Source: Clostridia bacterium
Lineage (GTDB): Bacteria > Bacillota > Clostridia > Oscillospirales > CAG-272
Reading direction: 5' to 3'
NCBI GenBank assembly: GCA_017461475.1
Contig: JAFTXX010000002.1
Span: forward strand, 17,127-81,126
Length of the DNA stretch: 64,000 nt
Under the pieces are notes generated by a model. It saw nothing but the letters and a program-made list of their open reading frames with translations, was not told the origin of the DNA and ran no database searches. This document shows positions 1,664-48,877 of this stretch, in pieces (position 1 is the stretch's first letter; each line of letters begins with the position of its first letter). A program made the translations under genes and the position numbers.

Positions 1664-2881
1664 ATGAATTTTAACGGAATAGATTTTGACACCTATTTTA
1701 AGAATTACCCCGATGCAAACGGCTACTTCGGCAAATACGGCGGCTCTTACATTCCAAACGATTTGCAGAAAGCCATGAATGAGATAACCGAGGCGTATTT
1801 TACCATCTGCAAGTCCAGCAAGTTTGTCAGCGAACTTCGCCGAATCCGCAAGGAGTTTCAGGGCAGACCCACTCCTATTTCGCACCTCGAGCGCCTTTCT
1901 TCCTCTCTCGGTAACGTTCAACTTTATGTAAAGCGCGAGGACCTCAACCACACAGGCGCACACAAACTTAATCATTGTATGGGCGAAGCGCTTCTTGCAA
2001 AATATATGGGTAAGAAAAAGGTCATTGCCGAGACAGGCGCAGGACAGCACGGCGTTGCACTTGCTACTGCGGCGGCATACTTCGGACTTCAGTGCGATAT
2101 TTACATGGGCTCTGTAGATATCAAAAAGCAAGCTCCCAATGTTGCAAGGATGAAGATCCTCGGTGCTAACGTAGTTGAAGTTACACACGGTCTTGCAACG
2201 CTTAAAGAGGCGGTTGATGCGGCATTTGAAGCGTATACCAAAGAATATAAAGATGCAATATACTGTATCGGCTCGGTAGTAGGGCCACATCCGTTCCCAA
2301 TGATGGTACGTGACTTTCAAAGCGTTGTTGGAATTGAGGCAAGAGAACAGTTTATTGAAATGACCGGCGAGCTTCCCGATGCTATCGTGGCGTGCGTTGG
2401 CGGCGGCTCAAATGCTGCGGGCTTCTTTTCCGGTTTCTTAAATGACCCTGTTGATATATACGGCGTAGAACCTCTCGGCAGAGGCGAAAAACTCGGCGAC
2501 CACGCTGCAAGCCTTACATACGGCAGCGAAGGTGTAATGCACGGATTCAACAGCATAATGCTCAAGGACTCAAACGGCGAGCCGGCACCCGTATACTCGG
2601 TTGCAAGCGGACTTGACTATCCTTCGTCCGGTCCCGAACACGCATTCCTTCACGATATCGGCAGAGTAAAGTACGATGTTGTAAACGACGAGCAGACGAT
2701 TGATGCATTTTATGCGCTTTCCCGTCTTGAGGGCATCATCCCTGCAATTGAGAGCGCACATGCTGTTGCATACGGCGTAAAACTCGCTCAGAAAATGGGC
2801 AAGGGTTCGGTTCTTATCAACCTCTCCGGCAGAGGAGATAAAGATATGGATTATATCATCGAAAAATACGGTATCAGATAA
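1664..2881 (+). CDS. trpB: tryptophan synthase beta chain
   Basis: N-terminal [18 protein letters not shown]-lysine motif HTGAHKLNH, and GGGSNAAG. The ATG at 1664 has a GGAGA ribosome-binding site. The longer track ORF starting at 1499 would read through the T-box terminator. Confidence 0.9.
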
Positions 2882-2904
2882 ATATATTAAAAAGGAGAAT
2901 TACC

Positions 2905-3891
2905 ATGAAAAAGTTTATATCAATTATTCTTGTTGCTCTTATTTCCGTTTTCGCACTTGCATCATGTGCAGATACAACAAATGCCGCGTCCGACACCTAC
3001 AAGGTCGGCGTAGTACAGTACATCAGCCACCCCTCTCTCGATAACTGCTTTGCAGGCGTTGAAGCCGCTCTCACCGAGCGCTACGGCGAAAAAGTTGAAA
3101 TCACCCGTCAGATCGGTTCCGACTCTTCAGCAGATTCCGACTGTGCAACCTATGCGAGCCAGTTCGCCGCACAGAACTACGATATGATAGTCGCAATTGC
3201 AACCCCCGCGGCAACCTCCGCTTTCGCGGCGGCTGAGGCAAAGGATATCCCCGTTGTATTCTGCGCTGTATCCGACCCCGTTGCAGTCGGTCTTGTAGAA
3301 AGCCTTGATGCTCCTGGTTACAACTGCTCGGGCACTTCCGATGTGCTTGATATGGAAGCGCAACTCGACCTTATTACATCTCTCCAGCCCGACGTAAAGA
3401 AAATCGGCGTACTCTATACCTCCAGCGAAGCAAACTCAATAGCACAGCTTGCACTTCTCGAAGAAGCGGCAAAGGCTTACGGTGTGGAAATCGTACCTCA
3501 GAGCATCCAGAGCGACTCCGACATTCCCTCCGCGGCAACCGCACTTTGCGCCAAGGTTGATTGCCTTAACAACTTTACCGATAACAAGGTCGTAAATAAC
3601 CTCTCCGTAGTTCTCGATGCCGCAAACGAAGCGGGAATTCCCGTTTACGGCTCCGAGGAAGAGCAGGTTAAAAACGGCTGTCTCGCATCCGTCTCCATCG
3701 ACTATGTTGCACTCGGTAAGGTAACCGGTAACATGGCGGCTGACGCACTCGAAGGTGCCGACCTTGCAACTATGGCTGTTAAGACCATCTCCGACGCAAC
3801 TCCCGTTGTCAACACCGATGTGCTTGCGGCATTCAATATTACAATGCCCGCGGCTTATGCAAACGCAACCACCGTTACAACCAACAAATAA
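2905..3891 (+). CDS. ABC transporter substrate-binding lipoprotein (ABC_sub_bind/PF04392-like, TrpX-like)
   Basis: Lipoprotein signal MKKFISIILVALISVFALASC. YKVGVVQYISHPSLD and the overall layout are typical of this binding-protein family. It starts 23 nt after trpB with a GGAG ribosome-binding site. Confidence 0.75.
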   Translation: MKKFISIILVALISVFALASCADTTNAASDTYKVGVVQYISHPSLDNCFAGVEAALTERYGEKVEITRQIGSDSSADSDCATYASQFAAQNYDMIVAIATPAATSAFAAAEAKDIPVVFCAVSDPVAVGLVESLDAPGYNCSGTSDVLDMEAQLDLITSLQPDVKKIGVLYTSSEANSIAQLALLEEAAKAYGVEIVPQSIQSDSDIPSAATALCAKVDCLNNFTDNKVVNNLSVVLDAANEAGIPVYGSEEEQVKNGCLASVSIDYVALGKVTGNMAADALEGADLATMAVKTISDATPVVNTDVLAAFNITMPAAYANATTVTTNK

Positions 3892-22617: not shown

Positions 22618-22856
22618 GTAGAACAAAACAACCGTTCCTTGCGGAACGGTTGAACAGTAAATACATTTTGAAACAAAATCTATTAACCGATAGCCCTCCG
22701 CCATAAAGCGACAGTCACACACATCTTATTATGTGCAACCAGGTCGGCATTTTGCATACACCGCCTTCGGCGTCAGCCTCTTTCACTGCGGCAACGGCTT
22801 GCAAGACCTTGCACCGCAGATACTAACGACATAACGCGCCTCTACCATTTGAGAAG
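22618..22856 (-). promoter_or_regulatory. lysine riboswitch (L-box) with expression-platform terminator
   Basis: Reading the minus strand: GGTAGAGGCGC, GTTAGTA, GTGAAAGAGG, GCCGAAGG, CCTGG, GACTGTC and TGGCGGAGGGCTATCGG occur in L-box order. They are followed by the hairpin caaccgttcc-gcaa-ggaacggttg and TTTTGTT (22618-22653). Confidence 0.85.
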
Positions 22857-40399: not shown

Positions 40400-41695
40400 T
40401 CAACTCTTTTTAATGTCCTTTGCCGCGGGATTGTCAATAAGTTTGCCGTCACTCCGAAAACGTGAGCCGTGGCATGGGCAGTCCCATGTCTTTTCTGCCT
40501 TGTTCCACTTCAGCGCACATCCGAGATGCGGACACCGCGGAGTTGAAAACCGTAACAAATTTGCTGTAGTTTCAAATGCGTTTATCGCAAGCTGCTTTGT
40601 AAACATAGACCGCGACGGCGAGAAAAGGGAAGCGTATTCGTTCTCTTTTTCACAAATCATATCCGCGATAATTTCCGCCGCGACCATTGCTGATGTCATG
40701 CCCCATTTGTTAAATCCCGTCGCCACATACATCCGCGGCGTGTTTTTTGAGTAACGTCCGATATACGGTATTCCGTCAAGCGTCACACAGTCCTGATTTG
40801 CCCACTTATAAACCGCTTTTGCTTTTGGAAAATGCCGCTCGGCAATGCTTTTTGCCTCGCTCCAAGCGGGGCTTTTCTTTCCCGTGCGACAACTTCCGCC
40901 GCCTATCAGCAAAAAATCATCGAAGTTGCGAAAAGACAGTCCGCTTTTACTGCCGTCAACATACATTCCGTCAACTTTTCCGCCGTCAAACGCAGTAACA
41001 TATGAGCGCTCCTGGTACATCTTCAAAAAATACAGTCCGCGGCTGTTGATAAAAGGGAAGTGCGTCGCAATTACAATGCTGCCCGCAGTAATCTTTCCGC
41101 CTGAGGTGATTGCCACCGTGCCTTCGATTTCATAAACCTCGGTGTTTTCGTAAATATTCAGTCCTTTCGCAATCCCCTCCGCAAATTTCAACGGGTGAAA
41201 CTGCGCTTGACCTTTAAACCTTATTGCTCCCGCGACTGGGAACGGCAGAGATGTTTTGTTTGTAAATTCCGCACCCGAGCCGATAAAATCGAGTGCTTTT
41301 AACTCACTGCCAATCTCACGCAGCCCGTCTCGCATAAACACATATGCGTCCTGTTCTTCGAAGTCACACTCAATTTCTTTACTGAGCACTCTGTATTTTG
41401 CTATTGCTCCCTCGTTCGCATCAAAATATAACTTTGCTGCATCCGCACCGCCGCTTTTTATTAACTTGTCATAAATCAAACCGTGTTGTGACGTTATTTT
41501 TGCCGTGGTGTTTTTGGTAATCCCGCCGCATATATTTTTTGCCTCGGCAACTACGCACTCCACCCCACGAGCAGTAAGCTCATGCGCAATTAAAAGTCCT
41601 GCAATACCGCCGCCGACAATAAGCACATCCGTTTTTATATCGCCGCAAAGTTTAGGAAAACGCGGCATAGAAAAATCCGACCAAATTGATTTCAT
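40400..41695 (-). CDS. FAD-dependent oxidoreductase fused to a C-terminal Rieske [2Fe-2S] domain (YhfW-like architecture)
   Basis: The dinucleotide-binding motif VLIVGGGIAGL is near the N-terminus. The Rieske motifs CPHLGC and CPCHGS are at the C-terminus. Confidence 0.8.
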   Translation of the reverse strand: MKSIWSDFSMPRFPKLCGDIKTDVLIVGGGIAGLLIAHELTARGVECVVAEAKNICGGITKNTTAKITSQHGLIYDKLIKSGGADAAKLYFDANEGAIAKYRVLSKEIECDFEEQDAYVFMRDGLREIGSELKALDFIGSGAEFTNKTSLPFPVAGAIRFKGQAQFHPLKFAEGIAKGLNIYENTEVYEIEGTVAITSGGKITAGSIVIATHFPFINSRGLYFLKMYQERSYVTAFDGGKVDGMYVDGSKSGLSFRNFDDFLLIGGGSCRTGKKSPAWSEAKSIAERHFPKAKAVYKWANQDCVTLDGIPYIGRYSKNTPRMYVATGFNKWGMTSAMVAAEIIADMICEKENEYASLFSPSRSMFTKQLAINAFETTANLLRFSTPRCPHLGCALKWNKAEKTWDCPCHGSRFRSDGKLIDNPAAKDIKKS

Positions 41696-41752
41696 ACTTT
41701 CACCTCTGTGTTAGTATGTTCAATTTGGTCGGATTAATTTATTTATGAAAAA

Positions 41753-43024
41753 TTATACGCCGTACACCAGCCAGATGTAAATGTAGGCGGGGATGATAGC
41801 AGCAAGCGTGAAAGGAATACCTATCTTAAAGAAGTCGCTGTTTTTAACAGTGTAGCCTTCTTTGCGAAGAATACCGATACCGGTGATATTTGCCGACGCG
41901 CCGATAGGTGTGCAGTTGCCTCCGAGAGTAGCACCGGAAAGCAAACCAAAGTAGAGCACTGTCGGGTCAATGTTAAGAGTTGCAGCGATACCGCCGATAA
42001 CAGGAATCATAGTCGCAACATATGGAATGTTGTCAATAAACGCCGAAATAACAACAGATGCCCACACAACAGCAGTGTAAAGTATAAATACATTACCGCC
42101 GCCAAGACTTGCAAGCAGATTTGCTGCAGTTTTGATAACACCCTGAGCTTCGATGCCGCCAATCATAAGGAACAGACCGAGCAAAAGACCGATAGTTTCA
42201 AAGTCAATTTCCTTAAGCGGAGCGGTAATCGCGGAAATATTGCGCTTTTTGATAAAGTTGTAAATCAAACCGACAACAAGCAAAGCGCAGCAGATAAGAC
42301 CGTTTGTGATGTCAGGCTTGTTCTCAATAAACGACGCGCAGATAAGGAGCGCTATAGCACCCACAAGCAAAACCGTGGGGACATAATCGGTAACCTTTGT
42401 GCGACTATTGGACTTGGGAATAGGCGATTTTTCTTTGCGGAACAGAAAAGCGAGAATAATTGCTGAAAGTATTGCTCCGAGTTCAACAGCAAAGAAAATA
42501 CTGGGGCGTCCGTTGTACCAGAAGAAGTCAGTGAAACTCATATCAAGCGCCGAGCCGAGCATGATAGCGGTTGTATCACCCACAAGCGTAGCCGCCCCCT
42601 GCAAGTTGGATGAAACCGCAATGCTGATGATAAACGGAACGGGATTGGTATTGAACTTCTTGCAGATTTCAAGTGCTACGGGAGCGACCATAAGTACAGT
42701 CGCAACATTGTCAACAAAAGCGGAAATCACGCCGGCAAACAGCGCCATTGCAACAGCCGCCCACTGAACATTAGGAACTTTGTCCATAACGATATCGGCG
42801 AGCAGAGAGGGCATCTTGCTCTCGACAAACAAAGAAACAAGCCCCATCGTTCCCGCAATCATGAGGAGCACGTTAAAGTCGATAGAGCCGAAAATATCAC
42901 CTATGGGAAGCATGCCTGAAACAATAAATATCAGCGCGGATGCAAGCGCAATGTACGGACGGTATTTGCTGAAAGCGAGCATAAGCACATATGTAACGGC
43001 AAATAGAATAATAGCTGGTATCAA
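41753..43024 (-). CDS. ArsB/NhaD-superfamily anion permease
   Basis: Polytopic protein with the duplicated motifs AFVDNVATVLMVAPV and AFIDNIPYVATMIPV. A TTG start at 43024 lies 7 nt after GGAGGA; the upstream ATG at 43084 has no ribosome-binding site. Confidence 0.7.
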   Translation of the reverse strand: MIPAIILFAVTYVLMLAFSKYRPYIALASALIFIVSGMLPIGDIFGSIDFNVLLMIAGTMGLVSLFVESKMPSLLADIVMDKVPNVQWAAVAMALFAGVISAFVDNVATVLMVAPVALEICKKFNTNPVPFIISIAVSSNLQGAATLVGDTTAIMLGSALDMSFTDFFWYNGRPSIFFAVELGAILSAIILAFLFRKEKSPIPKSNSRTKVTDYVPTVLLVGAIALLICASFIENKPDITNGLICCALLVVGLIYNFIKKRNISAITAPLKEIDFETIGLLLGLFLMIGGIEAQGVIKTAANLLASLGGGNVFILYTAVVWASVVISAFIDNIPYVATMIPVIGGIAATLNIDPTVLYFGLLSGATLGGNCTPIGASANITGIGILRKEGYTVKNSDFFKIGIPFTLAAIIPAYIYIWLVYGV

Positions 43025-43208
43025 TATGTTGTCCTCCGTTAAGAAACTTATGTATATTATCGCAGTTTTTTTTACAATTTGCAAGAGTTTTGATAAAAAA
43101 ACGCATTACAAGGTCAAAAAAATACCGAATAGGGGCAGTTTATGTCGAATGCTAAGAATTTAATGTAAAATAATTTCACAATTGAATTTTATCGGGAGGT
43201 TTACCAAA

Positions 43209-43730
43209 ATGAGCACGAACGTTGAAAACGCAAAAACATTTGACCTTGCCCTCGCATTAAAAATTTTGAAAGAAAATCACATCACGGATTTTATTACCGC
43301 GGCGGAAATTGAAAAGCGGCAGGATATATGCGATATAGAAACGTTGTTTACCGTGCTTGAAGAAGAAGGCCGTCCCGTTTCTTATGAGATACGCATTGAC
43401 GTAAAAGATATTTATGGTATAATATATGAAGAAAATGTTTCTGTCGAAAACTATAAAACTATTGTTCTGCGCGCACCCAACAGCGTGAGGAGAATGATAA
43501 GCAAATGGAATCCGCCAACCGAAACGCAGATGAAAATAGGGGATGCGGTAAATGATATTTATCGCCGCATTACGGAAAAAATCATAGGCGAGTATTATTA
43601 TTACACCGGTCGAAGCAATATCAAAGGGGAAAAAGGGAAATACGCCTACAAACTTATTGTCAGCGACAGAAATGCGATATTTGTAAATTTGCATAGCCGA
43701 ATTGCGCATCAAGTTTTGATAAAAAGATAA
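43209..43730 (+). CDS. hypothetical soluble protein, first gene of the LytTR regulator/kinase operon
   Basis: GGGAGG ribosome-binding site 9 nt upstream of the ATG at 43209. The stop is 10 nt before the response regulator start. I recognise no motif. Confidence 0.5.
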   Translation: MSTNVENAKTFDLALALKILKENHITDFITAAEIEKRQDICDIETLFTVLEEEGRPVSYEIRIDVKDIYGIIYEENVSVENYKTIVLRAPNSVRRMISKWNPPTETQMKIGDAVNDIYRRITEKIIGEYYYYTGRSNIKGEKGKYAYKLIVSDRNAIFVNLHSRIAHQVLIKR

Positions 43731-43740
43731 GGAGACGACT

Positions 43741-44460
43741 ATGCTTAATTGTGCCGTTTGTGACGATGACAAGAATATCGCAGATTCTGTAGCCTCCGTT
43801 ATAAAGACCGTCCTCGGCGAGAATAAATGTGTCGGAAATGTCTGTTCATACAACGATTCCCGCCTGTTTGTATCGGATATAATGGAGTATAAGCCGCTTG
43901 ACCTCGTTGTAACTGATATAGAAATGCCGTTTTTTAACGGTATGCAGATTGCCGTTGAGATTAAAAAGCGTTTTCCGGAGTGTTGTATTATTTTTTTGAC
44001 ATCGCACTCAAAATATGCAATAGAGTCTTTTGAACTGCAGATTTTCCGATATGCGCGAAAAAGTGATATCGAAACCAAGTTGCCTATGTACATCAAAGAA
44101 GCATTGACGATGCTTACATTGCAGGACGGTTGCGTTTATATTGTTCCAAAAAGCGAGAAATGCGAAAGACTGCCGTATAATCAAATTCTGTGCATAAAAA
44201 AAGACGGTAAGTATTCTACTATTGTCTGCATTGACAACCGTGAGATTCGCATAAGAAAACCGCTTTACAATGTGGCAAAAGAGCTTGACAGCGAGGAGTT
44301 TTTTATGATCGATCGCAGTTGTATTGTAAACGTTGCGATGATAATCCGTGTCGCAGAGCGCGAAGTCGTGTGTAAAAATGGCGTTCATTTGCCAATTAGC
44401 CGTTCAAAATTGACAGAAACCAAAACTAAAGTAGCTCTGTATTGGGGTGGCAAATTATGA
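43741..44460 (+). CDS. LytTR-family response regulator (AgrA-like)
   Basis: Receiver domain (CDDD..., LVVTDIEMP) plus a C-terminal LytTR domain (ILCIKKDGKYSTIVCIDNREIRIRKPL...FFMIDRSCIVN). Confidence 0.85.
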   Translation: MLNCAVCDDDKNIADSVASVIKTVLGENKCVGNVCSYNDSRLFVSDIMEYKPLDLVVTDIEMPFFNGMQIAVEIKKRFPECCIIFLTSHSKYAIESFELQIFRYARKSDIETKLPMYIKEALTMLTLQDGCVYIVPKSEKCERLPYNQILCIKKDGKYSTIVCIDNREIRIRKPLYNVAKELDSEEFFMIDRSCIVNVAMIIRVAEREVVCKNGVHLPISRSKLTETKTKVALYWGGKL

Positions 44461-45785
44461 GTTTGGTTTATAGTGCATCGGAGTATATAACTTCATTTGT
44501 TGAGTGTTATATACTCATCTGCATTTTCGGTAAGTTTTTCAATCGAAGAGCTTCTAAAAAGTTAAATACTTTTTTGCAAGTCGTTTGCAGCGTCGCCGTA
44601 ATGATATTTACGGTGTGGATGAATTCGGATGCGCTGTTTTCACTTTATACGCTTCATATATGGATAATTACTATGGCGTTTATAGGCGCCGTGCTGTATC
44701 AGGCAAACTTTTTGAAAACGCTTTGTGTGTCTATTCTCTATATGGTGCTTTTGTGTGCCTCAGACCTTTTCGGTCTTGCGGTCATTGAGCTTTTGTTCGG
44801 CGCAAAGGGACTTACACTTACGGTGATAACCAAGGTAGGCTCGCTTCGCACGGCATACAGTCTGACTGTAAAAATTTTGTTGGTAATTTTTTATTTTGTT
44901 GCATTCCGTAAAAATAAAAAATACGAGTTCGAAATAAAAACCGCGGTGGGACTTTCGGTCTACGGATACTTTTTCTTTTCGGGGCTGCAAAGCATGGTAA
45001 ACTCTATTGTGACAAACAGCATAACCGATATGCGTCGCTCGGTATTGCTTTCGCTTGTTTTTGTCATGCTTTTTATGGTTAGCGTTTTTGTAATGCTTAG
45101 CATCAACAGCAAACTTAAGCAGGAAAAACTCGAAAATCGCATAATCACAACGCGCATAGAGGTGCTTGAAAACAACAATAAGCAGTTGAATGATGCGTAT
45201 AAAGAAATTGCAAAGATGTCGCATGATTACGGCAATCAGTTCCGCATGGTTACGGTGATGGCACAAAACGGTAGATTCAGCGAGCTTGCTGAATACCTCT
45301 GTGAGATCAAGGATGATTTCAAAAGTGTGAAAATTCTTTCATACACGGCAATAGACAGCATCGATGCCGCAATAAACATCAAAGTGCATGCGGCGGAGTC
45401 TAAGAATATAGCAATAGACGTATCTGCTTCATATCCCGGGACCATAAATGTACGGCATGTAGATATTTGCGCCGTAATAGTAAATTTGCTTGATAACGCT
45501 ATTGAAGCGTGCGAAAAGATAGAAGATGCCGCTTTAAGATACATAAAGCTCAGCATTACATCAATAGGCGAAATGATTGTTATAAAAGTGGAAAATTCTC
45601 ATTGCGAAAAGCTTCCGGAAATGTATGATACAGTCGAGCTTCAAACAACAAAACCGGACAGCCACTCGCACGGATATGGTATGCAGATAGTTGATGCCAT
45701 AGCGAAAAAATATAACGGTTCTTTTGAGATAAATTATAAAGAAAACACGTTTGCGGCAATAGCAATGCTGACATGCGACAGTTAA
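44457..45785 (+). CDS. AgrC-like (HPK10-type) sensor histidine kinase
   Basis: About 6 N-terminal transmembrane helices, H-box SHDYGNQF, N-box LLDNAIEA and GYGMQIV. The ATG overlaps the response regulator stop (ATGA). Confidence 0.85.
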   Translation: MSLVYSASEYITSFVECYILICIFGKFFNRRASKKLNTFLQVVCSVAVMIFTVWMNSDALFSLYTLHIWIITMAFIGAVLYQANFLKTLCVSILYMVLLCASDLFGLAVIELLFGAKGLTLTVITKVGSLRTAYSLTVKILLVIFYFVAFRKNKKYEFEIKTAVGLSVYGYFFFSGLQSMVNSIVTNSITDMRRSVLLSLVFVMLFMVSVFVMLSINSKLKQEKLENRIITTRIEVLENNNKQLNDAYKEIAKMSHDYGNQFRMVTVMAQNGRFSELAEYLCEIKDDFKSVKILSYTAIDSIDAAINIKVHAAESKNIAIDVSASYPGTINVRHVDICAVIVNLLDNAIEACEKIEDAALRYIKLSITSIGEMIVIKVENSHCEKLPEMYDTVELQTTKPDSHSHGYGMQIVDAIAKKYNGSFEINYKENTFAAIAMLTCDS

Positions 45786-45804
45786 CGGTCAAAAAACAAC
45801 CAAT

Positions 45805-45838
45805 AGAGGACAAAGTGTGCACTTTGCCCTCTTTTTTG
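45805..45838 (+). terminator. intrinsic terminator between the kinase gene and agrB
   Basis: agaggacaaagt-gtgc-actttgccctct followed by TTTTTT. Confidence 0.75.
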
Positions 45839-45864
45839 GTATTTTATAGGTGGTGATATAATTT

Positions 45865-46470
45865 ATGGAAAAACTTGCAGAGAGATTTGCCGACAGGCTT
45901 GTGCTCAAAAATATTTGCACGCTGGAAGAGAAACCGCTGTATGTATATGGCATGACACTTTTTTTAACTACAGCGCTTGTTATGCTCAGCATTGTTACTT
46001 TGTCGATAGTGCTTTTTGATGTAAGGTACGGAGTTTTGTATGTTGTTATGTTTCCGATGCTCCGCGTTTGCGTCGGAGGATATCATTGCAAAACATACGC
46101 GTCTTGCTTTGTTGTTTCAAATATAATTTTTGTTGCAGATGCTTTTTTTGCAGTATTTATCTGCGGCATGCCTGCTATGTGGTCCGCATTAATATCCGTT
46201 TCAATAATGCTTGTATCGGCAGCGTATATCATCTGCAATGCCCCCATATCCAATCCTAAAAACCCATTGCTCCAAAAGCGAAAAGAAAAAAACAGAAAGA
46301 AAGCGATTATTCGAACCACGGCATTGACCGCAACTTCGGTTGCGTGCGCACTTGCTGCGTTAAAATTTCCCGCATTTCTGTATGTTTCATCAACCGCGGC
46401 TTCGGTTGAATTTACCGTGGCATTATTAATGATAATAGAAACGATTAAACAGAAAGGAGAAAAAACATGA
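45865..46470 (+). CDS. agrB: AgrB-family autoinducer-processing membrane peptidase
   Basis: Polytopic 201-aa protein. LRVCVGGYHCKTYASCF has His and Cys 7 residues apart, the same spacing as the catalytic H77/C84 of S. aureus AgrB. Confidence 0.85.
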   Translation: MEKLAERFADRLVLKNICTLEEKPLYVYGMTLFLTTALVMLSIVTLSIVLFDVRYGVLYVVMFPMLRVCVGGYHCKTYASCFVVSNIIFVADAFFAVFICGMPAMWSALISVSIMLVSAAYIICNAPISNPKNPLLQKRKEKNRKKAIIRTTALTATSVACALAALKFPAFLYVSSTAASVEFTVALLMIIETIKQKGEKT

Positions 46471-46586
46471 TTAAGAAGTTTGCTGAACTCATTAACGCTG
46501 TTGCTAAGGCGGGCGCATATGAGGCTTCTGCCGGTTTCACCTACCAGCCTGAAGTTCCCGCTTGCCTCATGGACAACGAGGACTAA
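46467..46586 (+). CDS. agrD: AgrD-like cyclic autoinducing-peptide precursor (39 aa; not in the ORF track)
   Basis: The ATG overlaps the agrB stop (ATGA) and an AAAGGAGAAAA ribosome-binding site lies upstream. Translation: MIKKFAELINAVAKAGAYEASAGFTYQPEVPACLMDNED. It has an amphipathic N-terminus, a YQPEVP recognition motif and an acidic tail. The terminator lies 17 nt downstream. Confidence 0.8.
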   Translation: MIKKFAELINAVAKAGAYEASAGFTYQPEVPACLMDNED

Positions 46587-46602
46587 TCCGAAATCGACAC
46601 AC

Positions 46603-46637
46603 AAAAAGCCGATACCCATGCGGGTATCGGCTTTTTG
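46603..46637. terminator. bidirectional intrinsic terminator
   Basis: AAAA-gccgataccc-atgc-gggtatcggc-TTTTT between agrD and the convergent gene. Confidence 0.8.
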
Positions 46638-46680
46638 CTTATTAATGCGGATGAAATTGTATGCCCGGCTAATCATCACC

Positions 46681-47022
46681 TTATCCTCTATACCGATCCA
46701 CTGCTTCGCGGAATCTGTCAAGGAAACTTTCTTCACCCCAAGTGTTAAGTTTAAAAAACATAGCCTGCGAGCCGCCCGATGTTACAGCGCAAACCCTTAT
46801 GGTATTATCGCCCGTCTGCGTAAGCAAAACACTGAGACTAACGCGGTTGCCGCCCGCATAACTGTATCGCTCAAAAACACTCATTTCCGTCATGCCGTCA
46901 GCGTGTCGGTATGTACATCCGTCCTCATAACTCGCAGAAATACTCCCGTTCATTATCTCATCGTGAATATATCTCGAAAAATCCGAAAAATTTCCGTTTA
47001 CCGTACATTCATATTTAGCCAT
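46681..47022 (-). CDS. hypothetical 113-aa protein
   Basis: The ATG at 47022 is preceded by AAGGAGGA (MAKYECTVNG...). Confidence 0.55.
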   Translation of the reverse strand: MAKYECTVNGNFSDFSRYIHDEIMNGSISASYEDGCTYRHADGMTEMSVFERYSYAGGNRVSLSVLLTQTGDNTIRVCAVTSGGSQAMFFKLNTWGEESFLDRFREAVDRYRG

Positions 47023-47080
47023 ACCGAATCCTCCTTGATTGCCTATATTCATTATACAGCAGTTTCTGACATTTGTCTAT

Positions 47081-47350: not shown

Positions 47351-48082
47351 CTACGAACTCATTTCTTTTCTTAAAAACTCGATAAGCTTTTTTTCCTCGC
47401 GGGAAATCTTTACTTGCGAAAGACCCAACTGTTCGGCGGTGGATTGCTGTGACATATCGCGGTAATAGCGGAAGAGGACTATTTTTTGCCATAGTTCGGG
47501 CAGTTTGTTCAGCGCTTCGGTGAGCGACAGTTTTTCTATCATTTTTTCGCTTTCGTCCTTGGCAAACAGCGTGTTTTCAAGCGTGAAGTTTTCTTCGTCG
47601 CCGCAAAGCGGCTCAGAAAGAGATACGGCGGGGGACACGGCGCAGAGTGCGGCGGCGGCTTCTTCCGCGCCGACGCCGCATATCTCGGCGATTTCTTCTA
47701 TTCGCGGGGCGGTGCCGTTTTCGCTGATGTATTTTTCTTTCGCACGCATAAGCATTGCACCGAGTTTCTTTTGCGGACGGCAAATTTTTATCAGACCGTC
47801 GTCACGCAGAAATCTGCGTATTTCACCGAAAATAAGCGGCACTGCATAAGTAGAAAAAACTACTCCGCGCGAAAGGTCAAAACTGCGTATAGCCTTGAGC
47901 ATACCTATGTTTCCGATTTGTACAAGGTCCTCAAAGTCCACACCGCGGCCGTTGAATTTGCACGCGATACTTTGCACAAGTCCAGCGTTAAGTTTTACAA
48001 GTTCTTCCGTTGCGGATCGGTCTCCGCTTTGTGATAGACGAATAAGTTCAAGATTTTCAGAAAATTTTGCGGTCGATTCCAT
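47351..48082 (-). CDS. sigF: sporulation sigma factor F
   Basis: Group-3 sigma motifs (DLVQIGNIGMLKAIRSFD, YAVPLIFGEIRRFLRDDGLIK) in the conserved position after spoIIAA and spoIIAB. Confidence 0.85.
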   Translation of the reverse strand: MESTAKFSENLELIRLSQSGDRSATEELVKLNAGLVQSIACKFNGRGVDFEDLVQIGNIGMLKAIRSFDLSRGVVFSTYAVPLIFGEIRRFLRDDGLIKICRPQKKLGAMLMRAKEKYISENGTAPRIEEIAEICGVGAEEAAAALCAVSPAVSLSEPLCGDEENFTLENTLFAKDESEKMIEKLSLTEALNKLPELWQKIVLFRYYRDMSQQSTAEQLGLSQVKISREEKKLIEFLRKEMSS

Positions 48083-48087
48083 TAAAA

Positions 48088-48531
48088 TTACAATTCAAGA
48101 GGCGAAAGTTTTTTTGCAAGTGTGACCTTGGTGTACTTTCCCGGCACCGATTTCAGCGTGAGTTTGTCCATGAAACTTTCCATTACCGAAAAGCCCATTC
48201 CACTCCTCTCACCGCTTGAATCAGTGGTGTAAAGCGGAGTTTTCACAAGTTCTGTGTCCTCGATGCCGCACCCCTTGTCCTTTATTTCAATTTTCACGGT
48301 TCTGCAGTCGAAAATTTTAACCGTTATGTAAATTTCACCCTGCTTTTCACGGTATGCGTGTACAATGCAGTTGGTTATGGCTTCCGATACGGCACATTTT
48401 ATATCCGCAATTTCTTCTATAGTGGGATTGAGTTGTGCGCAAAACGCGCTTACCATTGCGCGTCCTACGCCCTCGTTGACCGAGAGCGCGGGAAGCGTAA
48501 GGCTCATTTTATTTATACAATTACTTTTCAT
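48088..48531 (-). CDS. spoIIAB: anti-sigma F factor (serine kinase)
   Basis: GHKL motifs (EAITNCIVHAY, DKGCGIED, GERSGMGFSV) and a size of 147 aa. Confidence 0.85.
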   Translation of the reverse strand: MKSNCINKMSLTLPALSVNEGVGRAMVSAFCAQLNPTIEEIADIKCAVSEAITNCIVHAYREKQGEIYITVKIFDCRTVKIEIKDKGCGIEDTELVKTPLYTTDSSGERSGMGFSVMESFMDKLTLKSVPGKYTKVTLAKKLSPLEL

Positions 48532-48877
48532 CTTCCGTTCCTTTCCGCGTTGTTCTGTACTCTATAGTCACTACCTTGCCAAGACCCGCAAGTTCGATTA
48601 TGCGTGCGACTCTGGTTGTCGGATTGATAAGTTTAAATGCCGCGCCTATTCTGTCTGCAGTGGATTTTCTACCCATTATTACGCCAAGTCCCGAACTGTC
48701 CATAAAATCGACGTTTGATAGGTCAAGTTCTACAAGTTTAGGCCTTGCGGATATCATTGCGTCATCAAGTTCATCTCTGAGCGCAAATGCTCCATGGTGG
48801 TCGATTTCCCCGACAATGGCGGCAAGAAGTGTGTCATCTTTGACTTCGGAAATTATACGTGCGTTTTTTCGAATCAT
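48521..48877 (-). CDS. spoIIAA: anti-sigma F factor antagonist (STAS domain)
   Basis: STAS motif VDFMDSSGLGVI with the phosphorylatable Ser. It overlaps spoIIAB by 11 nt. Confidence 0.85.
   Translation of the reverse strand: MIRKNARIISEVKDDTLLAAIVGEIDHHGAFALRDELDDAMISARPKLVELDLSNVDFMDSSGLGVIMGRKSTADRIGAAFKLINPTTRVARIIELAGLGKVVTIEYRTTRKGTEDEK

Follow-up and report, generated by a model that had tools for sequence, protein, structure and literature searches.

A serine-type agr locus with a predicted lactone signal and a conserved partner gene in an uncultured Clostridia bacterium

Can a 39-codon open reading frame (ORF) directly behind an agrB-like gene encode the precursor of a quorum-sensing peptide, and would that peptide be closed through serine rather than cysteine? 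This question is raised by a stretch of 64,000 nucleotides from an uncultured Clostridia bacterium (contig JAFTXX010000002.1; the whole stretch is hereafter called the window), in which a gene for a 173-aa protein, agrA, agrC, agrB and agrD follow one another on the same strand at 43182-46640. Our analysis indicates that this locus is very probably a genuine, complete agr-type peptide quorum-sensing system of an uncultured spore-forming gut-type Clostridia bacterium. The prediction that its signal is a lactone ring running from Ser21 to Thr25 (SAGFT) is well supported, because serine occupies the ring position in all 23 clusters of a clade of related AgrD proteins, and homologues outside this clade have cysteine in the same column. 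A sequence-only reading of the window had described a LytTR regulator, an AgrC-like kinase, AgrB and, overlapping the agrB stop, a 39-codon ORF; all of these lie where it had placed them, and hidden Markov model (HMM) searches, including those for AgrB and LytTR, confirmed their domains. The genes of the locus are as follows, in window positions:

43209..43730, + strand: 173-aa agr-associated gene; ATG at 43209, ribosome-binding site GGGAGG; called as 173 aa in public assemblies
43741..44460, + strand: agrA; receiver domain (PF00072, 5e-12) and LytTR domain (PF04397, 1.1e-14)
44457..45785, + strand: agrC; HATPase_c_5 domain (PF14501, 1.6e-22); ATGA overlap with the agrA stop
45865..46470, + strand: agrB; full-length PF04647 match (4.7e-29); multiple hydrophobic segments
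46467..46586, + strand: agrD; 39 codons, its ATG overlapping the agrB TGA (ATGA); TIGR04223 match

The agrD product is MIKKFAELINAVAKAGAYEASAGFTYQPEVPACLMDNED (39 aa), and a GGAG Shine-Dalgarno sequence lies upstream of its ATG. It matched the TIGR04223 model ('AgrD family cyclic lactone autoinducer peptide') with 34 bits against a cut-off of 19, colinearly over residues 2-35, and all 17 aligned relatives tested also passed this model. The protein consists of a leader (residues 1-17/20), the predicted ring S21-A-G-F-T25 and a follower, Y26-QPEVPACLMDNED. As the earlier reading had proposed, SAGFT directly precedes YQPEVP with serine as the ring residue, and the translation contains no cysteine before Y26. 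The same reading had called the gene unannotated, which holds only in part: it was too short for the ORF track, but it had already been called in public assemblies, among them a metagenome assembly that contains a locus identical to that of the window, and NCBI has named the family, one clade member appearing as 'cyclic lactone autoinducer peptide [Clostridia bacterium]'. The label thus arose solely from the ORF-length cut-off of the first stage.

When 5.8 billion proteins were searched with a profile of the clade alignment, the 23 AgrD clusters were retrieved. The results showed that serine stands exactly five residues before an invariant YQP in every cluster (23/23) and that no cluster (0/23) has cysteine at or beside the ring position; the lone clade cysteine N-terminal of the cleavage site is found at leader position 6 of cluster P0062. 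The orthologous peptides share the pattern leader-G-A-x-x-x-S-x-x-x-x-Y-Q-P-x-x-P-..., whose Gly-Ala at -5/-4 from the ring serine (Gly16-Ala17 in the window) is invariant in 12 aligned members and present in 23/23 clusters. Ring positions 2-5 vary across the clade (AGFT, VIFA, ALLS, MLLS, ALVS, VLSS, TGLS, IGPS, VWLS and WGFF), and an invariant serine with variable positions 2-5 is the pattern expected of a fixed nucleophile in a specificity-determining ring. Cys-type homologues outside the clade (CMYWS, CIGWT, CRCLT and CLYMA) align their cysteine with the clade's serine column, and a near-isogenic swap of the two residues is seen between locus L022 (SLYWT before YQPKRP) and locus L023 (CMYWS before YQPKAP). 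Hence the serine is no sequencing or strain artefact, the orthologues carrying it without exception.

As for the mature peptide, it could be a tail-free cyclo-SAGFT, with a calculated [M+H]+ of 464.214, or, were the leader cut after Gly16-Ala17, it could be YEA-(SAGFT) with a three-residue tail and an [M+H]+ of 827.357. The SAGFT ring is common to four AgrD clusters (P0041, P0047, which is that of the window, P0052 and P0062). In the one pair compared, namely the window and locus L004, which encodes P0041, AgrB and AgrC are about 67-70% identical and the ring is the same. An unchanged ring despite this level of divergence suggests cross-species signalling, and the SAGFT clusters may represent a pherotype shared across species.

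Nine further loci were obtained from AgrB homologues at 68% down to 32% identity. Wherever the sequence sufficed, the order of upstream gene, agrA, agrC, agrB and a 38-39-codon ORF recurred, with the ORF overlapping or abutting the agrB stop, and this synteny is kept in loci whose AgrB identity ranges from 68% down to about 38%. The short ORF was found at every orthologous locus, and both its Shine-Dalgarno sequence and its overlap with the agrB stop are conserved in the orthologues. A GTDB genome search with a single AgrB query found no relatives. A scan of the GTDB species genomes with an AgrB alignment found distant relatives only, all of them metagenome-assembled genomes of uncultured Clostridia/Bacillota (Lachnospiraceae, Clostridiales, Eubacteriales and Oscillospiraceae), and their AgrDs obey the same Ser-x4-YQP rule.

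Variants of the layout were also seen. Two tandem agrC paralogs lie between agrA and agrB in L017 (1133-3899), L018 (1664-4404) and L019 (1553-4403). On a metagenome contig of the sister species, L003, agrA (2878-3597) has a TGA at codon 7 (MLNCVV*), and the gene is intact in L004, at the same coordinates in the same species. Agr-defective variants are known in staphylococci, and the L003 stop may likewise mark a natural agrA-null variant. In L014 (4843-5588) and L015 (36-781), from a distant relative whose AgrB is 25% identical, agrD directly precedes agrB, the two genes abutting, and the peptide is of the Cys type (CLYMA before HQPKLP), which indicates that gene order and nucleophile both vary within the wider family.

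The proteins expected to process and sense the peptide carry the relevant residues. His74 and Cys81 of AgrB are invariant in 8 homologues and lie in the motif GGYHCxxYxxC, with the cysteine seven residues past the histidine, a spacing that equals that of the catalytic pair H77/C84 of S. aureus AgrB. In AgrC, a polytopic membrane histidine kinase with a GHKL domain, the His box HDYGN lies at H256, and residues 1-215 contain five or more hydrophobic segments; the phospho-acceptor Asp59 of AgrA was read from the translation.

How, then, might such a locus be controlled? In promoters regulated by LytTR proteins (AgrA P2/P3, ComE, PlnC/D and BlpR), a pair of direct repeats spaced by about 21 bp directly precedes the core promoter. 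The agrC-agrB gap of 79 nt contains a terminator hairpin and leaves a promoter no space past it; therefore, the orthologous intergenic regions were compared. The regulatory features of the locus are listed here:

43112..43137, + strand: predicted AgrA (LytTR) site of the first unit; GGTCA-N16-GGGCA, 21-nt phasing
43164..43171, + strand: predicted -10 of the promoter of the 173-aa gene, agrA and agrC; TG-TAAAAT, with the -10 hexamer at 43166-43171
45787..45812, + strand: predicted AgrA (LytTR) site of agrBD; GGTCA-N16-GGACA, starting 2 nt past the agrC stop
45805..45837, + strand: intrinsic terminator of the unit of the 173-aa gene, agrA and agrC; stem-loop 45805-45832, then a T-run
45837..45845, + strand: predicted extended -10 of the agrBD promoter; TGgTATTTT
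46602..46637, no strand assigned: terminator hairpin 3' of agrD; 16-bp stem, A-run before, T-run after

All orthologous agrC-agrB intergenic regions contain a direct repeat, GG(T/A)CA-N16-GGACA, with 21-nt phasing, which begins 1-2 nt past the agrC stop; once two over-extended start calls had been corrected, the distance from its first box to the agrB ATG was constant at 75-79 nt in every orthologue. In the window, L003, L006 and L007, an extended -10, TGnTAxxxT, occupies positions 30-38 counted from where box 2 begins; L009 and L010 share the TGTTAT core, and L011, L012 and L032 have TATAAT instead, either at this offset or one nucleotide before it. The repeat/-10 module also precedes the orthologous 173-aa genes in L003, L009, L010 and L031, and the first-unit -10 lies 34-39 nt from the start of box 2, essentially at the offset of all orthologous promoters; the model would place the transcription start of the first unit near 43178. 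By chance, 0.49 matches to the bare repeat pattern would be expected in 64 kb; there are three, two of them being the agr sites. With a position weight matrix (PWM) built only from non-window orthologous sites, 45787-45812 scored 35.0 bits, the best value in the window, and 43112-43137 scored 26.0 bits, compared with 10.6 bits for the next-best site outside the agr locus and a shuffle maximum of 18.1.

Two candidate elements were set aside. The third pattern match (48255-48280, - strand) lies within spoIIAB. It lacks a -10 where one would be needed and did not rank with the twelve top-scoring PWM sites, each of which reached 4.6 bits or more; we regard it as a chance match and accordingly do not connect the agr locus with the sigF operon. 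The other element, TATAAT at 45856-45861, was a candidate for the agrBD -10, but orthologues do not preserve it, and transcription would then begin within the gene.

The terminator described earlier between agrC and agrB was found as a hairpin at 45805-45832 followed by TTTTTT, with one A.C mismatch on the + strand; the terminator scan listed it on the - strand only. Five of its 12 stem pairs show compensatory double changes across 9 orthologues, and box 2 of the agrBD promoter forms its 5' arm. The boxes of the upstream promoter, which no same-strand gene precedes, are not followed by a hairpin of this kind. Because the stem covaries and the upstream promoter lacks a hairpin, these comparisons indicate that the element is a genuine terminator of the unit of the 173-aa gene, agrA and agrC, fused to the activator site and spacer of agrBD. 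The idea of two autoinduced units, in which both promoters would depend on AgrA, is supported by the module in front of each unit and by the covarying terminator that separates them. The hairpin at 46602-46637 is the stronger one, and only its + strand meets the tail rule of the scan. A DUF6054 gene at 46681-47052 (- strand; PF19524, 2.3e-40) is convergent with agrD, and since an A-run and a T-run flank the hairpin, it may terminate both genes. No Rfam RNA was found within the agr locus, and RNAIII was not identified.

Taken in order, the circuit would work as follows. The 39-aa AgrD would be bound by the membrane peptidase AgrB, which would cut between Thr25 and Tyr26 by means of His74 and Cys81, removing the follower YQPEVPACLMDNED, and would transfer the acyl group of Thr25 onto the Ser21 hydroxyl, giving the five-residue lactone S-A-G-F-T. 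A second protease would remove the amphipathic leader. The exported peptide would then be sensed by AgrC, which would phosphorylate AgrA at Asp59, and phosphorylated AgrA would bind the GG[T/A]CA-N16-GG[A/G]CA repeats just upstream of the extended -10 at the two promoters. These would drive the 173-aa gene with agrA and agrC on the one hand and agrB with agrD on the other, so as to close a positive feedback loop, and the conserved intrinsic terminator, built into the activator-site/spacer region of the second promoter, would part the two units. Established by the analysis are the identities of the genes, the catalytic residues, the invariance of the serine, the conservation of the repeats and the covariation of the hairpin; we infer the chemistry of the ring and where the precursor is cut, as well as the promoters, their binding by AgrA and autoinduction.

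Several observations weigh against this reading. The AgrD check proposed by the sequence-only reading succeeded with TIGR04223 and failed with PF05931, AgrD having no Pfam match at E <= 1; the PF05931 model was built on staphylococcal sequences, so that the missing match weighs little. The NCBIfam equivalog models were matched far below their cut-offs, with 30.8 bits against 400 for AgrA (NF046049), 40.3 bits against 500 for AgrC (NF046015, residues 47-399) and 30.5 bits against 282 for AgrB; to judge by these scores, AgrA, AgrB and AgrC are distant from the staphylococcal type. The repeat of the window differs in sequence from the staphylococcal AgrA box, and the PWM found no further box-plus-promoter site in 64 kb. 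Moreover, the implied agrBD transcription start, about 45852, lies about 13 nt before the ATG and begins at the Shine-Dalgarno sequence, which is unusually short; most orthologues have this short spacing, and it is longer in L032 and L012. At the family level, the locus has the defining agr-type features of AgrB, AgrD, AgrC and AgrA; it is not a staphylococcal-type equivalog.

Other readings of the peptide were weighed against the same data. The idea that the 39-codon ORF arose by chance, beside a two-component system that contains AgrB and has no peptide of its own, might draw on its very short length and the missing Pfam match, but it is hardly credible: the comparative data refute it, the ORF scoring above the TIGR04223 cut-off, keeping its Shine-Dalgarno sequence and agrB-stop overlap in the orthologues, retaining an invariant motif at loci whose AgrB identity falls from 68% to about 30%, and having been called independently in public assemblies. 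Closure through Cys33 of the follower (PACL), giving a thiolactone of different composition, is highly improbable. A cysteine in a P-x-C-L context does occur in 21/23 clade clusters, but it is C-terminal to YQPxxP, the motif at which the follower to be cleaved off begins in every aligned AgrD, the Cys-type proteins among them, and the 6 residues after the cysteine are too few for a five-residue ring plus follower. Furthermore, the position has no cysteine in L012 (PKSLCKKD) or L032 (PVSLINK, with no cysteine at all), Ser-type AgrDs outside the clade (L022, L027 and L028) have no tail cysteine, and the colinear TIGR04223 match over residues 2-35 speaks against it as well. A rather unlikely variant, one that the sequence-only reading had not raised, follows the same route up to the active signal, which would be the lactam cyclo(SAGFT), of the same mass, formed by an O-to-N acyl shift: the leader would be cut right before Ser21, and the free alpha-amine would attack its own side-chain ester. 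The window AgrD has alanine at -1 of Ser21, which fits such a cut. On the other side, the conserved Gly-Ala fits cleavage that leaves three residues as a tail and would thereby prevent the shift, and three clade members have proline at -1 of the serine (GMPS). Proline at this position disfavours a signal-peptidase-type cut immediately before the serine. Tail-free clostridial thiolactone autoinducing peptides (AIPs) rearrange spontaneously, the half-life of Rc-AIP1 being about 5 min and its lactam being the genuine signal, and the same study states that what becomes of Ser-lactones without a tail, the C. thermocellum peptide being one, is still to be clarified (PMC8251862). That Ser-type AIP was reported to be tail-free, with the leader cut between A24 and S25, but Verbeke et al. 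assigned it as a lactone against a synthetic standard (PMC5322536).

A further alternative concerns the origin of the locus rather than its chemistry. The sequence-only reading had noted that the block is AT-rich and had suggested acquisition. The composition was borne out, the block having 39.9% GC against 45.7% for the window and being its lowest 3.5 kb, with only 0.8% of equal-sized windows as low; a recently acquired foreign island is, however, quite unlikely. In its favour, colinearity with the related species, which extends from 41142 to 46587, stops exactly at the agrD stop codon, the right side being rearranged, and the agr proteins of the two species are 52-70% identical (AgrD 82%), compared with 88% for the adjacent CitMHS transporter. 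Faster divergence is typical of agr loci, though, and the related species (L003/L004) has the orthologous block at the same left junction, with the same CitMHS and FAD/Rieske genes and the same GC dip (38.1% against about 45.5%), which indicates that the block predates the species split. Besides, no integrase, transposase, tRNA or flanking repeat adjoins the block, and clade loci are not AT-rich as such, since the L009 block has 55% GC and its flank 54.7%.

What does the gene in front of agrA contribute to this system? Its 173-aa product has no Pfam or NCBIfam match and no hydrophobic segment and is cytoplasmic, and its family has 29 representatives among 1.84 billion proteins. Members lie directly upstream of agrA in the window, L003-5 (L003 2343-2867), L009 (1275-1784), L010 (2374-2910), L019 (about 253-813), L031 (394-957) and L032 (2983-3522); with a family HMM, seven distinct agr loci other than that of the window were found to have a member in front of agrA, and none was found in L017/L018 or in the Cys-type loci fetched. 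Even members at 22-27% identity are still directly upstream of a LytTR regulator, and in one such locus the genes for an AgrC-type kinase, AgrB and a Ser-type AgrD come next. An AlphaFold2 model from 27 sequences (predicted local distance difference test, pLDDT, 93.7) confidently predicts a two-part fold, one part N-terminal and helical, the other C-terminal and made of a helix and a four-stranded sheet; a model from 3 sequences only (pLDDT 52) was unusable. Foldseek found no significant match for the model in the PDB (best E 0.48) or BFVD (best E 0.16). Weak rows for RNase Sa and RelE-like proteins were discounted as evidence, and HMMER matches to two giant Kelch/DUF5122 beta-propeller proteins, which looked like repeat-motif noise, were dropped. 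The gene would be co-transcribed with agrA and agrC from the predicted AgrA-dependent promoter, and its product would therefore be either a modulator of the circuit or an output. We tentatively propose, as a possibility and not a strong one, that it is an undescribed fifth component of this clostridial agr subtype, acting as a cytoplasmic AgrA/AgrC modulator or as a direct output effector.

Immediately to the right of the locus lies a spoIIAA-spoIIAB-sigF operon (47351-48877, - strand; STAS, HATPase_c_2 and Sigma70 domains), and the host is therefore taken to be a spore-former; this adjacency is not conserved in the sister species. Elsewhere in the window, a T-box leader (1295-1536, + strand, 112.6 bits) and a lysine riboswitch (22683-22852, - strand, 76.3 bits) were found at the Rfam gathering threshold, and the scan of the 64 kb found no rRNA or tRNA.

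The locus is thus a sound annotation in a field where Ser-lactone AIPs are already known, from S. intermedius, E. faecalis and C. thermocellum; new here are the LytTR-type repeats with an extended -10 at both units, the covarying terminator that contains repeat 2, and the agr-linked 173-aa family. Almost all characterised clostridial AIPs are Cys-based, and the small, coherent clade of uncultured Clostridia to which the window belongs is always Ser-type. This clade could serve as a compact model, or natural test bed, for the stability of tail-free Ser-lactones versus their rearrangement to lactams, and the locus illustrates how a single intergenic region can fuse a terminator with activator sites. 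Its interest rests on the uniformly Ser-type clade, on this fused terminator/activator site and, above all, on the 173-aa partner gene, which is the least ordinary element of the locus and the one that could lead to something new.

How does this locus compare with known systems? The Ser-lactone AIP of S. intermedius was reportedly described by Ji et al. in 2005. Large-scale mining of AgrB/AgrD pairs with PF04647 and TIGR04223 has been published (PMC12180512; PMC11953309), and a few dozen AIPs have been chemically characterised as against tens of thousands of predicted AgrDs (PMC12180512). The rarity of Ser-lactones implied by the sequence-only reading did not hold up, a clostridial precedent being available: for AgrD of Clostridium (Acetivibrio/Hungateiclostridium) thermocellum (Clo1313_2818), a Ser25-Phe29 cyclic pentapeptide was detected by liquid chromatography-tandem mass spectrometry (Verbeke et al. 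2017, PMC5322536). Judged by its published layout, this AgrD resembles that of the window in its serine nucleophile, a five-residue ring followed directly by tyrosine, a conserved proline five residues later and an alanine before the serine (PMC5322536). However, agrD of C. thermocellum is an orphan gene, its neighbours including none of agrB, agrC and agrA (PMC5322536), whereas the window has the full set and an extra conserved gene. Among clostridial agr systems, Ruminiclostridium cellulolyticum Rc-AIP1 and other clostridial cyclic AIPs give tail-free products that can rearrange (Molloy et al. 2021, PMC8251862), but these are Cys-based and undergo an S-to-N shift, in contrast to the Ser-based peptide predicted here; Rc-AIP1 controls sporulation (PMC8251862), and the window locus happens to adjoin spoIIAA-spoIIAB-sigF.

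Outside the clostridia, Ser-lactone AIPs are known from the agr systems of S. intermedius/S. pseudintermedius and from E. faecalis GBAP (PMC12312760). As in the window, serine replaces cysteine at ring position 1 in S. intermedius/S. pseudintermedius, and AgrB, AgrD, AgrC and AgrA are all present. The gene orders differ, as the sequence-only reading had noted: staphylococcal agrBDCA forms one P2 operon with a divergent RNAIII (P3), whereas the window has two same-strand units, the 173-aa gene-agrA-agrC and agrB-agrD. The repeat core of the window, GG(T/A)CA, likewise stands apart from the staphylococcal consensus, and repeat 2 of agrBD doubles as the 5' arm of the upstream terminator. The fsrABDC/GBAP system of Enterococcus faecalis shares with the window a Ser-linked lactone, an AgrB-type enzyme and AgrC/AgrA-type sensing, but GBAP has a 9-residue ring in an 11-mer (PMC12312760), compared with the five-residue ring predicted for the window.

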